A stretch of 64,000 nucleotides of DNA, from contig JACQCD010000121.1 of NCBI GenBank assembly GCA_016201825.1, forward strand, positions 1,753 through 65,752, read 5' to 3'. The notes below the pieces were generated by a model that worked only from the letters and a program-made list of their open reading frames with translations, was not told where the DNA came from and did not search any database. Shown piece by piece: positions 8,501 to 29,388 of the stretch. Source of the stretch: Nitrospirota bacterium (GTDB lineage: Bacteria > Nitrospirota > Nitrospiria > 2-01-FULL-66-17). Within the stretch, counting starts at the first letter, position 1; each line of letters begins with the position of its first letter. A program made the position numbers and the translations under genes.

Positions 8501-9754
8501 ATGAATCTGACCGAACTCAAGGAAAAAGCGATTGGGGATTTGAACGAGATTGCCAGAGAGCTGAAGATCGAAGGGGCGAGTAATCTGCGAAAACAGGAGT
8601 TGATTTTTGCGATCCTTCAGGCCCAGTCCGAGAAAAACGGAACCATTTATGGGGAAGGCGTGCTGGAAACGCTGCAGGACGGTTTCGGGTTCCTCCGGTC
8701 CCCCGATTATAACTATCTGCCCGGCCCTGACGACATCTATATTTCCCCCTCCCAGATTCGGCGCTTTAACCTCAGAACCGGCGACGTGGTCTCCGGCCAG
8801 GTGAGGCCTCCCAAGGAGGGTGAGCGGTACTTCGCGATGCTCAAGGTCGAAACGATTAATTTCGAAGACCCCGACGTGGCCCGCGACAAGATCCTCTTCG
8901 ACAACCTCACGCCGCTCTATCCGATGGAGAAGATTCGGCTGGAAGCTCCGGGGATGGAGGACTACATGTCGACGCGCGTCATGGAGTTGATCTCGCCGAT
9001 CGGAAAGGGCCAGCGAGGGTTGATCGTCGCGTCGCCTCGAACCGGCAAGACGGTGTTGTTGCAGAATATCGCCAAGGCCATCATGAAGAACCACCCCGAG
9101 ATCGTGCTGATCGTCCTCTTGATCGACGAGCGGCCGGAGGAGGTGACCGATTGGCAGCGGCAAGTCAAAGCGGAAGTGGTCAGCTCCACGTTTGACGAAC
9201 CGCCCCAGCGTCATGCGCAGGTCGCCGAGATGGTGCTGGAAAAAGCCAAGCGCCTCGTGGAGCACAAACGAGACGTCGTGATACTTCTCGACAGCGTCAC
9301 CCGCCTCGCCCGAGCGTATAACACCATTGCCCCGCCCAGCGGGAAAGTGCTCTCCGGCGGGTTGGACGCCAACGCGCTCCAACGCCCCAAGCGATTTTTC
9401 GGCGCGGCGCGCAATATCGAGAACGGCGGGAGCTTGACGATCATTGCCACGGCGTTGATCGATACCGGGAGCCGGATGGATGACGTTATTTTCGAGGAGT
9501 TCAAGGGCACCGGCAACATGGAGCTCCATTTGGATCGAAAGCTCGCCGACAAACGGATCTTTCCGGCCATCGACTTGAACCTCTCGGGCACTCGGAAAGA
9601 AGAGCTCTTGGTGGAGCGGGAGGATCTGAACAAGATGTGGATCCTGCGGAAGGTCCTGAGCCCGCTAAGCACCGTCGAAAGCATGGAGTTTCTGCTCGAC
9701 AAAATCCGCGGGACGAAGACGAATCGCGAGTTTTTGGAGTCGATGAACAAGTAA
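8501..9754 (+). CDS. rho: transcription termination factor Rho
   Basis: [25 protein letters not shown]…, Walker [17 protein letters not shown] upstream of the ATG at 8501. Confidence 0.96.
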
Positions 9755-25830: not shown

Positions 25831-26891
25831 CGCCCCCTCCCATCGAACCGGACGATTTGGCGTCGATCGCGTCGCGGTCGGCCGTGTCGACCCATGCCGG
25901 CGAAGACGAGCGCGGCTACGAAACCAGCCTGCGTCCGCTCTCGCTGGACGAGTATGTCGGCCAGGAGACGATCAAGGCCAATCTGCGCGTGTACATCGAG
26001 GCGGCGCGGCGGCGCGGCGAGGTCCTCGACCACGTCATCTTCTACGGCCCGCCCGGCTTGGGCAAGACCACGCTCGCCCACATCATCGCGAAAGAGCTCG
26101 GCGTCCACATCAAGGCGACATCCGGCCCCGCGCTCGAGCACGCCGGAGACCTGGCCGCGATCCTCAGCAACCTCGGTCCCCGCGACGTGTTCTTCATCGA
26201 CGAGATTCACCGCTTGCATCCCGCGATCGAGGAAGTCCTGTATCCCGCCATGGAGGACTTCCAGCTCGACATCATCATCGGGCAGGGCCCCTCGGCCCGG
26301 ACGATCAAGCTCGACCTTCCGCCGTTCACCCTGGTGGGTGCGACCACACGCGCCGGCCTCTTGACGTCGCCGCTGCGGGAGCGCTTCGGGGTCATCAGCC
26401 GGCTCGAATACTACCAGCCCGCCGAGCTGGAGCGGATCATCCTGCGATCCGCGCGCCTGCTCAAGGTCCCCATCGAACCGGCCGGCGCCGCCGAGATCGC
26501 GCGCCGGGCCCGCGGCACCCCCCGCATCGCCAACCGCCTCTTGCGCCGCGTGCGGGATTTTGCGGAGGTCAAGGGCGAGGGCGTGATCACACCCGAGGCC
26601 GCGCACAACGCGCTGGGCATGATGGAGATCGACGCCCAGGGCTTTGACGTGATGGACCGCCGACTGCTGACCGCGATCATCGACAAATTCGGCGGCGGCC
26701 CGGTGGGCGTCGACACGCTGGCCTCCGCGATCGGCGAGGAAAAGGAAACCATCGAAGACGTCTACGAACCCTTCCTCTTACAGGGCGGCTACCTCGATCG
26801 TACGCCTCGCGGCCGCCTCGCGACCCCCCTCGCATACCAGCACCTCAATCGTCCGCTGCCGAACAGCGCTGATCAAAAACCGCTGTGGTAG
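25827..26891 (+). CDS. ruvB: Holliday junction branch migration helicase RuvB
   Basis: [13 protein letters not shown]…[13 protein letters not shown]…FIDEIHRL…. Confidence 0.96.
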
Positions 26892-26941
26892 ACGTGACAA
26901 AACCTGCTGACTTAAACCCAGTTGTGTGAGATCATTTTACG

Positions 26942-27247
26942 GTGAAGCAACAGTTCCAGTATCAATTTGAGTGGGACCCAGCAAAAGCCCGTCAGAATGC
27001 CAAAAGACACGGAGTTCCCTTTGAACGTGCGGCGACAGTGTTCCTTGATCCAGACGCCTTGTCCGAATTTGATGAGGAACACAGTCGGGGAGAAGATCGG
27101 TGGATTACCTTGGGGGTAGATCGGACAGGAATCCTCTTGGTTGTCTGTCATACGTATCGTGAGGAGAGGCAATCCAGTGCTCGGATACGGGTGATCTCCG
27201 CGCGCAAGGCCACCAGACCTGAAGCCGGCCAGTATAGGAGGAAATAA
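26942..27247 (+). CDS. brnT: BrnT-family (DUF497) toxin
   Basis: FEWDPAKARQNAKRHGVPFERAATVFLDP…IRVISARKATRPEAGQY. Confidence 0.8.
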   Translation: MKQQFQYQFEWDPAKARQNAKRHGVPFERAATVFLDPDALSEFDEEHSRGEDRWITLGVDRTGILLVVCHTYREERQSSARIRVISARKATRPEAGQYRRK

Positions 27248-27250
27248 CCG

Positions 27251-27451
27251 ATGAAACGAGAATACGACTTTTCAAAGGCCGTGAGGGGGAAATTTTACCG
27301 CAAGGGAGCGATGGTACGGTTACCCATTTATCTGGGTTCTAAGCTGCAGAACCAGGTGGAACGCATTGCACGGAAAAAGGGCAAAGAGCTGGAAGACGTC
27401 GTGAATGCACTCGTGAAGAAGGAAGTGGAGTTGCTGGAGGAATTCACCTGA
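27251..27451 (+). CDS. brnA: BrnA-like antitoxin (RHH/CopG-like)
   Basis: 66 aa starting 4 nt after brnT. MKREYDFSKAVRGKFY…VRLPIYLGSKLQNQVERIARKKG…. Confidence 0.6.
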   Translation: MKREYDFSKAVRGKFYRKGAMVRLPIYLGSKLQNQVERIARKKGKELEDVVNALVKKEVELLEEFT

Positions 27452-27843
27452 GACAGAAATGGTATCAGACACCTTTTTACAACCTCGTCACCATTCTTGA
27501 TCACGACGAGAGTAATTGGCTCTACGGAAGACTCAGATTATCCGTAGGCTGACGTCGTAATAAAAGACGGCAGAGATGCCAGCTAATACATGCTATGTGT
27601 TCGGTGGGCGCGATCTGCCCGAGTTGTTCCGCGCGTGGGAACCCGCGCTCCGTTAGACGCTGAGCGTGTGGATGCCATCAGGAAGGGGCGAGACGCCGTG
27701 AGAGACGGACCTTCGAGCATGGGCGTCGAAGCGGCTCGCTTCGGAAACGATGTCGCTCGCCGCCGACAAGACCAACGGCGTTGCTGAAGCCGAAAGCGCG
27801 ACGCTATCGTTCAACAGTAACTTCCCAAGTCGGGGCCAAGAGG

Positions 27844-28677
27844 ATGCTCACCAAAGAGACGTGTGTCCAGAAATACGAGCAGTGCAAGCTCATCAAGAAC
27901 GGCGGCATTCCGGAGTACCGCGAGTTCTTGAAGTACGCAGGCATTGACAGACGTCAACTCGGAAAGCTCTTTGGATCGTCAGCGTACTCGAAACTTCAGG
28001 ACGCCGCTGGCGACGCTCCAAATAAACTGCAATTGGAACGCACGCCACTCTCGACGATCATGCAGCAATACGGCAGCCTCGTCACAGAACTCGGCGTTGT
28101 GCCAGCGTATGCCGAATGGGACCATCGAGGCCTGAAGCCCACAGAGAGTGGGCTGCGTGCAAAACCTCACAACATGAAATGGTCCGATCTCCCAACAAAA
28201 TTTGTGGAATGGGTGACGACGAACAGGGTCTCCGGATTCGAGAGAGCGATTGAAATTATCACGGCGTCCGATCGGACGCCCGCCAAAAGGACATCGGACA
28301 GCGATGGAGATTTTTCTAGACTGATCAAAGATGTCAGAACGTGGACGCCTGCCCGACGAAGAAACAACGAATCCGAGTACAAGATCGAGCTGCGCAAACA
28401 CCTGGAGTCTCTGAATCACGAACTGAATGAGGAGTATGGCGAGAGCAAGTACGATTTGCTTGTTCGACGAAAATACGCAATCGAGGTCAAGAAGGACCCA
28501 GATCTTGCCGAATATGATCGCCTCTTCGGGCAGCTCGCGAGGCATCTCCAGCACCAGTGCAAAGTGATCGTCCTGATACTCGAGGCCACAAGAAAAGACA
28601 AATATGACAATTTCACCGCGCTTGTCGACAAGTACCTCAATGTCGACGAAAACTCGGTCGTGGTAATTAAGAAATGA
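27844..28677 (+). CDS. two HEAR-like (homing-endonuclease-associated) repeats fused to a C-terminal PD-(D/E)xK-type nuclease-like domain
   Basis: Repeats …YEQCKLIKNGGIPEYREF…LFGSSAYSKLQDAAG and …YGSLVTELGVVPAYAEWD… C-terminus ESEYKIELRKHLE…YDLLVRRKYAIEVKKD (E…D…ExK). Start at the ATG at 27844 after AAGAGG. Confidence 0.5.
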   Translation: MLTKETCVQKYEQCKLIKNGGIPEYREFLKYAGIDRRQLGKLFGSSAYSKLQDAAGDAPNKLQLERTPLSTIMQQYGSLVTELGVVPAYAEWDHRGLKPTESGLRAKPHNMKWSDLPTKFVEWVTTNRVSGFERAIEIITASDRTPAKRTSDSDGDFSRLIKDVRTWTPARRRNNESEYKIELRKHLESLNHELNEEYGESKYDLLVRRKYAIEVKKDPDLAEYDRLFGQLARHLQHQCKVIVLILEATRKDKYDNFTALVDKYLNVDENSVVVIKK

Positions 28678-28833
28678 ACCCACAGGCGCCGTGTCAAAGG
28701 GCCAAGGACCCCCTACCAAGTCTACCCCGTCGTTCAAGCCAACCGGCCTCCGGCGTCGTGTTCCACGCGCCGTCTCCCGGCCGTCCGGCTTAACTTTGCG
28801 TTAGATGACAAAACCAATTGACCGAGGTTTCAA

Positions 28834-29388
28834 ATGACATGGAGTAATCTCGCGAGTATAGGTCCGCGCAAGTTCGTCTGCGGCTTCTGTGGGAACGTGG
28901 TTGCATCAGCGCTGGGATGGTATACGAACGTCCAACCGCAGGCCTTCGTTTACGTCTGTCCCAACTGTGATCGCCCCACCCTGTTCGGCGATCGTGGACA
29001 GATCCCAGGTGTAGTCCCTGGCAATGAGGTAAGCCATCTTCCTCAAGACATCGAATCCCTCTATCGAGAGGCCCGGTCGTGCGTTTCTGTTAGTTCTCAC
29101 ACTTCAGCAGTTCTGACGTGCCGCAAGCTATTGATGAACATCGCGGTTGCACAGGGGGCTAAAGAGGGGGAGTCATTCGTCTCCTACGTTGAGTACCTGG
29201 CTAACGCCGGCTTCGTTCCGCCAAATGGTCGCGGCTGGGTGGACCACATCCGCAGCAAGGGCAATGAGGCTAACCACGAGATCAAGCTCATGGGGCAGGC
29301 CGACGCCGAAGAGCTCATCGCCTTCGTCGAGATGCTACTCAAGTTCATCTATGAATTCCCGAGCAAGGTGCCGGCCAAGACAACGTGA
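28834..29388 (+). CDS. Zn-ribbon + DUF4145 domain protein
   Basis: CGFCGN…CPNCDR (4-Cys ribbon), then LYREARSCVSVSSHTSAVLTCRKLLMN…VDHIRSKGNEANHE…AEELIAFVEMLLKFIY, typical of DUF4145. Confidence 0.7.
   Translation: MTWSNLASIGPRKFVCGFCGNVVASALGWYTNVQPQAFVYVCPNCDRPTLFGDRGQIPGVVPGNEVSHLPQDIESLYREARSCVSVSSHTSAVLTCRKLLMNIAVAQGAKEGESFVSYVEYLANAGFVPPNGRGWVDHIRSKGNEANHEIKLMGQADAEELIAFVEMLLKFIYEFPSKVPAKTT

Follow-up and report, generated by a model that had tools for sequence, protein, structure and literature searches.

PD-T7-4 of Escherichia coli UMB1727 has been renamed RAZR, for ring-activated zinc-finger RNase (Nature 2026, PMC13017515). In RAZR, an N-terminal Cys4 zinc ribbon is the sensor: this zinc-finger domain binds phage proteins of ring shape (T7-type portals and Gp77). 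Its C-terminal DUF4145 domain is a divergent HEPN RNase in which R146 and H154 are essential (PMC13017515). RAZR acts as a single-gene abortive infection system that cleaves single-stranded RNA and halts translation (PMC13017515). Here, we compare RAZR, along with two kinds of nuclease, with genes found in a 64,000-nucleotide stretch of a Nitrospirota bacterium genome (assembly GCA_016201825.1, contig JACQCD010000121.1; hereafter the window). Between ruvB and pheA, the window holds a 2.8-kb islet of low GC content with a brnT toxin gene, a small antitoxin-like gene, and two further genes: gene A (27844..28677, + strand), which encodes a solitary nuclease-like protein of 277 amino acids, and gene B (28834..29388, + strand), which encodes a protein of 184 amino acids that is predicted to be a RAZR/PD-T7-4-like RNase with a zinc ribbon and a HEPN (DUF4145) domain. 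An earlier, sequence-only reading of this DNA had placed both open reading frames (ORFs) correctly and had joined them into a candidate two-gene defense module. Our analyses instead indicate that the islet is probably a landing site occupied by three independent accessory cassettes and not one system, with gene B as a free-standing gene of the RAZR kind and gene A as a predicted solitary DNA endonuclease. The domain identities, conserved residues, cassette boundaries, purifying selection, and absence of linkage reported below are observations, whereas every biochemical activity and phenotype is inferred.

Gene B and its relationship to RAZR

Gene B joins an N-terminal Cys4 zinc ribbon (C16, C19, C42, and C45; 28879..28968, + strand), presumed to be its trigger-sensing domain, to a C-terminal DUF4145/HEPN domain (29065..29331, + strand) that carries R140 (29251-29253), N144, and H148 (29275-29277). 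The Pfam model of DUF4145 (PF13643) was matched at 7.4e-12 over residues 78-166, with a score of 45.6 bits (cut-off 23.1), and PADLOC identified gene B as PD-T7-4 (PDLC04109) at 2e-7, residues 33-171 aligning to positions 40-176 of the 211 in the model. The sequence-only reading had recognized both the ribbon and DUF4145 and, with some hesitation, an R-x7-H motif of HEPN type. All of these held: the four cysteines, R140, N144, and H148 were invariant across 28 gene B homologues, and R140/H148 aligned with R146/H154 of RAZR (within CRIVGNQAVH), the pair proven experimentally to be catalytic (PMC13017515). The same reading had assigned neither gene to a named defense system. For gene B this was wrong, as it matches PD-T7-4/RAZR; for gene A, PADLOC returned no match.

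The relationship was clearest at the level of profiles. A profile of the gene B family matched RAZR chain 9y9c_OA (PDB 9y9c) at E 5.3e-5 over residues 10-152, bringing into register both CxxC pairs (CPHC...CSHC in RAZR), the linker, and the R/H pair. Gene B thus has in common with RAZR an N-terminal Cys4 ribbon, a conserved linker (P..GN.E...P), a C-terminal DUF4145/HEPN domain, and an identical R-x7-H catalytic spacing, as well as a single-gene organization and a mobile distribution over chromosomal islets, phages, and plasmids. Judged from these alignments, gene B is a distant relative of RAZR and a member of an already known kind.

Several observations count against too close an equation of the two. 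The single-sequence phmmer comparison of gene B with 9y9c reached only E 0.17 (against a profile E of 5e-5), and gene B is shorter, with 184 amino acids versus 211 positions in the PADLOC model of RAZR and 219 residues in 9y9c_OA. The alignments end at about RAZR position 160-176, such that the inter-dimer segment with D179/D180/R184 lies beyond the aligned part and is unmatched; because the alignment stops before these inter-dimer residues, ring activation of gene B may differ from that of RAZR. Gene B also differs in belonging to a large, separate subfamily of environmental bacteria: its homologues in the protein database form more than 3600 clusters of proteins of ~185 amino acids, all with DUF4145.

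By analogy with RAZR, the zinc ribbon of gene B would sense ring-shaped phage proteins, for example portals, and the assembly borne by the ring would then activate the C-terminal HEPN/DUF4145 RNase through R140 and H148. The activated RNase would be expected to cut tRNA, rRNA, and mRNA, upon which translation would stop and the infection would be aborted. Through gene B, the RAZR class, itself only recently understood, gains a large subfamily from environmental bacteria, and comparison of this subfamily with RAZR of E. coli could reveal which parts of the ring-activated assembly are essential. At L017:650-2138, the gene most similar to gene B (90% identity) is followed 88 nucleotides (nt) on by a HEPN_AbiV gene, and two different HEPN-type abortive-infection genes thus adjoin on this 2.2-kb contig.

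Gene A, a conserved nuclease-like family

Gene A had no Pfam match and was unnamed in all libraries scanned (Pfam, PADLOC, and PHROGs). Its 154 homologues, of ~277 amino acids, are likewise without a name or a Pfam domain. The ATG start of gene A agrees with the N termini of these homologues (150 or more), and the family has a mean column identity of 63%. The ratio of nonsynonymous to synonymous substitution rates (dN/dS) was 0.06-0.2, which signifies strong purifying selection, and gene A is therefore a real gene under selection. An AlphaFold2 (AF2) model of the whole protein (pLDDT 84.7) had two similar four-helix units in its N-terminal region, which precede a C-terminal domain spanning residues 152-277 (28297..28674, + strand).

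The E...D...ExK core of restriction-endonuclease type that the sequence-only reading had picked out in the C-terminal domain was borne out by the family. The candidate catalytic residues E176/E182, D204 (28453-28455), E214 (28483-28485), K216 (28489-28491), and Q230 were invariant in 24 family members, the E...D...ExK pattern being far above chance, and W, P, E, Y, G, D, ExK, and Q were at least 90% conserved over 93 remote relatives of the domain. The AF2 model of the domain alone (126 amino acids; pLDDT 90.6; pTM 0.86) had the order alpha-beta-beta-beta-alpha-beta, with elements (counting residue 152 as 1) H25-38, E54-56, E60-66, H70-84, E89-95, H100-114, and E120-125. In this model, D204 opens strand 2, E214-x-K216 lies within strand 3, and the acidic E176/E182 belong to helix 1; gene A shares this core, and the positions of D (strand 2) and ExK (strand 3), with the REase_DpnII-MboI family.

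A link to that family was found through a single intermediate protein, P0376, which was matched by the profile of the gene A C-terminal domain (A2) at 7.3e-11 in a search of 1.84e9 proteins. An hhalign comparison of A2 with P0376 gave 97.8% and E 8.4e-13 with D, ExK, and Q aligned, and residues 164-249 of P0376 matched Pfam REase_DpnII-MboI (PF18742) with 29.3 bits versus a gathering score of 27 bits. Because P0376 bridges the A2 profile and PF18742, the assignment of gene A to the PD-(D/E)xK nucleases is supported by transitive homology, and both sequence and model support a predicted restriction-endonuclease-fold domain of the REase_DpnII-MboI lineage at the C terminus of gene A. The same exhaustive profile search delineated a superfamily of C-terminal domain relatives (P0241-P0389, alignment A4) that has no Pfam model of its own. 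Its 440 representative proteins (clusters) have many architectures, including stand-alone forms of ~140-180 amino acids and proteins of 300-520 amino acids, and DNA-binding SAP domains of eukaryote type were present in 27 of the 93 remote relatives.

Other results weigh against this assignment. The link to DpnII-MboI depends on P0376 as the only bridging protein, gene A itself scoring below the Pfam model. Sequence and profile searches of gene A against the PDB gave no significant match (best YcgR at 0.38 and Hjc at 0.4), and Foldseek searches of the PDB with the whole-protein and domain models gave none at E <= 1e-3, all having E >= 0.04, with the domain model retrieving generic alpha/beta folds. 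Since no Foldseek match reached E <= 1e-3, the nuclease assignment was not rested on Foldseek. In favor of a nuclease, the weak Foldseek matches were enriched in PD-(D/E)xK enzymes, the direct searches by structure and sequence tended toward nucleases such as EcoT38I, Mus81, XPF, SfsA, EndoMS, and Hjc, and a weak structural match to a phage PD-(D/E)XK protein had a probability of 0.99 but an E of 0.036.

The N-terminal region had been taken to hold two homing-endonuclease-associated repeats (HEAR; Pfam HNH_repeat, PF18780), which was only partly borne out. The first helical unit (residues 3-55; 27850..28008, + strand) is a putative DNA-binding module that can be called HEAR-like: PF18780 was matched by 7 of 24 gene A relatives, at residues 3-43 only, and, as a point against even this assignment, the best score among them (24.5 bits, E 3.5e-5) was under the 26-bit cut-off. 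The second unit (residues 66-127; 28039..28224, + strand), recognized by its four-helix pattern in the model, had no HEAR or other Pfam match when searched alone, and hhalign of unit 1 against unit 2 indicated no relationship (probability 0.6%).

In function, the helical HEAR-like N-terminal region of gene A would aim the C-terminal PD-(D/E)xK domain at DNA, for the cleavage of which E176/E182, D204, E214-x-K216, and Q230 are the candidate residues. Gene A would act without a partner gene and without a methyltransferase: none of the contexts examined, the window included, had a methyltransferase partner. PADLOC searches of gene A and the 93 relatives yielded nothing meaningful. Gene A therefore departs from the type II restriction-modification organization of REase_DpnII-MboI enzymes in its lack of a methyltransferase, and it differs from them further in that the helical HEAR-like region replaces the recognition elements of the type II enzyme itself. 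We lean slightly, and tentatively, toward a role for gene A as a methyltransferase-less restriction-type nuclease directed against foreign DNA.

How gene A reaches its sites can be read from its copies. Those at L024, L030, and L032 have 85-88% nucleotide identity and lie in three unrelated contexts, and their homology breaks off abruptly, at 87-110 nt before the ORF and 0-11 nt after it. Between the window copy and that of L018, homology extends from -49 to +77, an interval that comprises a conserved 5' leader with the promoter and ribosome-binding region (27795..27843, + strand) and a 3' tail (28678..28754, + strand) with the hairpin CACAGGCGCCGTG at 28681-28693. The upstream stretch contains a ribosome-binding site and, conserved among copies, a promoter-like GAC.CTATC element. 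Because the homology ends sharply in differing contexts, the unit is a cassette of ~1 kb made up of promoter and ORF (~50-110 nt of leader plus the ORF), and it has neither a recombinase nor terminal repeats.

Such a cassette would also fit a free-standing, selfish nuclease gene of homing type, which would cut alleles that lack it, be copied in by repair, and occasionally jump to new intergenic sites. Favoring this reading are the HEAR-like N terminus, the occurrence of almost identical copies in different places with abrupt limits to their homology, and the compact, recombinase-free form of a cassette that sits among housekeeping genes (tyrS / A / pgm; PFOR / A / IS200 transposase / infB; EF-G and a helix-turn-helix [HTH] gene / A / a ParE pair and obg). 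The GC content of gene A is below that of its host, and its spread is patchy: it was found in 4 of the 401 genomes of its own phylum (1%), yet in at least five phylum-level groups among 15 genome loci, which derive from species-representative carriers in Nitrospirota, Betaproteobacteria, Planctomycetota, Spirochaetota, and Nitrospinota as well as one uncultured Pseudomonadota metagenome-assembled genome (MAG). The same site is occupied in related species (L002/L003, L007/L012, and L008-L010), and degenerate copies exist, one with an in-frame stop (L010:5872-6828) and one with a frameshift and an extra C-terminal fragment 2 kb downstream (L012:5920-7147 and 8872-9393). On the other side, IMG/VR, phage records, and plasmids contained no gene A copy; gene A did not occur in any phage, intron, or intein context; and strict homing would not predict insertion sites that differ. 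Strong purifying selection and long syntenic persistence would fit a host-beneficial gene as well. No empty allele was found either, 12 of the 12 contigs with identical TyrS carrying gene A, and the facts on how gene A travels fit a restriction-type and a homing role alike. We regard a homing role for gene A as a close rival to the restriction-type reading, if somewhat unlikely in itself.

Free-standing HEAR nuclease genes (of HNH, GIY-YIG, or Mrr type) offer the nearest comparison for this reading. Like them, gene A stands as a lone low-GC insertion among unrelated genes of the host, joins a HEAR-like unit to a nuclease domain, and has no recombinase; it differs in having one sub-threshold HEAR-like unit and a nuclease of the DpnII-MboI lineage. 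A broader proposal, of which we remain doubtful, is that gene A represents a previously undescribed family of mobile cassettes, each with one nuclease gene and no recombinase (a promoter of ~100 nt and a gene for a nuclease with HEAR-like and DpnII-MboI-fold parts), which in environmental bacteria (Nitrospirota, Planctomycetota, Betaproteobacteria, Spirochaetota, and Nitrospinota) sit on the chromosome, with the nuclease itself driving the spread into gaps between housekeeping genes. If true, gene A would be to bacterial chromosomes what free-standing homing endonucleases are to phages.

It is improbable that gene A is inactive as a nuclease and serves instead as a DNA-binding or regulatory protein, or as a repair factor, built on a degenerate restriction-endonuclease fold. 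The want of a significant match to a solved nuclease, the mostly housekeeping neighbors, and the stable synteny within families would agree with such a role, but the full E/D/ExK/Q set, which does not vary within the family and reaches at least 90% conservation among remote relatives, marks an active site, and occurrence in 1% of the genomes of the phylum argues against a core function in repair. Gene A constitutes a strongly conserved, unannotated family of predicted nucleases, and its catalytic domain can be connected with the restriction fold of DpnII-MboI. Whether as a stand-alone restriction enzyme or as a homing-type element, it could, if truly one of these, offer new DNA specificities and a case study of single-gene movement without recombinases, and it is the more open item of the two genes.

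Probable independence of the genes within the islet

Mobility of gene B is evident from its relatives, which were found on 2 temperate phages and 8 plasmids. Its match to phrog_1305 ("DNA binding protein") at 3.7e-23, together with the same annotation on its counterparts in Lactobacillus phage KC5a and in a phage of Terrisporobacter, might suggest that gene B is a DNA-binding protein derived from a prophage and has no defense role in its present host. We consider this very unlikely: the PHROG and phage names are merely annotation labels, temperate phages often carry defense genes, and the invariant R/H pair and Cys4 ribbon align with residues that are essential for defense by RAZR.

Gene B is better understood as a RAZR relative that stands alone, and its genomic contexts bear this out. 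No gene B homologue lay within 6 kb of gene A at any of the 15 genome loci (0 of 15, by BLAST), and, close relatives excepted, no neighbor of gene A was conserved across these loci. A whole-genome scan of 17 other gene A-bearing genomes with the DUF4145 hidden Markov model found no copy adjoining gene A; a weak match below the cut-off in the Nitrospinota MAG of L013, to a membrane-protein-like ORF, possibly lies on the contig of gene A, ~2.5 kb downstream. Six separately fetched metagenome contexts of gene A also had no DUF4145 gene beside it. Conversely, 80 metagenome loci of gene B (304 kb) contained neither gene A nor a relative of its C-terminal domain at E <= 0.01, and they shared no conserved neighbor of any kind. 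The closest relatives of the two genes are unlinked: the closest contexts of gene A (83% identity) have VapBC and HigBA, not gene B, and the closest relative of gene B is flanked by an unrelated gene of 136 amino acids and the HEPN_AbiV gene. Two more annotated gene B contexts differ again, and in the window gene B is not accompanied by any small ORF in head-to-head orientation. Although genes A and B are adjacent within one low-GC islet on the same strand, with 156 nt (28678-28833) and no strong terminator between them, the co-occurrence check was thus negative throughout, RAZR works as a single gene (PMC13017515), and a two-gene defense module in which a nuclease and a HEPN-like partner act jointly is exceedingly unlikely.

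Gene A contexts beyond those given above include a HigB pair and VapBC / A / small genes followed by NikA-like and HTH_17 genes; NYN and UPF0175 / A / a phosphatase; and Uma2 / A. The 56 nearest neighbors of gene A in 17 genomes were mostly housekeeping genes (alaS, pgk, gap, ilvD, and uppS), accompanied by HepT, BrnT, and YhcG of toxin-antitoxin pairs, and the enrichment near known defense genes that a defense module would lead one to look for was absent. This lack of a defense-island signal, to which PADLOC added no match, tells against a defensive role for gene A. For genome scans more generally, the adjacency of defense-like genes in a small islet does not amount to evidence of a system. 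In the L013 genome, gene A is followed by a gene of 131 amino acids with the Fic/Doc motif HPFLDGNKR, read off its translation, which has the look of a toxin (L013:7195-7590).

The islet begins past ruvB (which ends at 26891) and is followed by pheA (from 29753), hisC, and aroF. Its low GC content, already pointed out in the sequence-only reading, was confirmed: brnT, the antitoxin-like gene, gene A, and gene B had values of 0.53, 0.49, 0.52, and 0.56, whereas ruvB and pheA had 0.67 and 0.62 and the window overall 0.636. A gap of 392 nt (27452-27843) separates the antitoxin-like gene from gene A, and ~340 nt of it (27452-27794) had neither a recognized gene nor similarity to other gene A loci. 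Scans for promoters and terminators found no more sites than in shuffled sequence. An imperfect direct repeat of 17 nt (26895-26911 and 28806-28822), with exact part TGACAAAACC, brackets the block of brnT, antitoxin-like gene, and gene A; because, by our own estimate, chance alone would yield ~5 exact 10-mers in a region of 3.2 kb, this repeat was treated as a chance-level match that is probably meaningless. In three genomes of the same family (G231, G171, and G108; L036-L038), the genes downstream of ruvB were wholly unlike those of the window, and pheA was absent within 6 kb. The ruvB-pheA junction is therefore itself lineage specific, and these genomes provide no empty junction for comparison.

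The remaining cassette is the brnT pair. BrnT (101 amino acids; 26942..27247, + strand) matched Pfam BrnT_toxin at 5e-27, and a gene of 66 amino acids (27251..27451, + strand) starts 4 nt past it. The earlier description of a BrnTA module next door is accurate for the toxin and less so for its partner, as the small gene had no BrnA match in the Pfam scan and only a weak PHROG match (0.003) to Arc-like, ribbon-helix-helix repressors. With a clear toxin followed at once by an antitoxin-sized gene, the two are an ordinary type II toxin-antitoxin pair in a separate cassette, which merely neighbors genes A and B and is a functional part of neither. A pair similar to that of the window (BrnT 62% and partner 67% identical) occurs in a Nitrospiraceae MAG (L010:7413-7944), ~600 nt downstream of the pseudogenized gene A and on the opposite strand. 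This observation had prompted the idea that BrnTA and gene A are linked, which was rejected: the syntenic sister locus L008 (6832-7500) has gene A at the same site and no BrnT/antitoxin pair, and the orientation differs. Because L010 has the pair and its sister L008 does not, BrnTA has reached the neighborhood of gene A on two independent occasions, and the gaps holding gene A and BrnTA are thus likely insertion hot spots.

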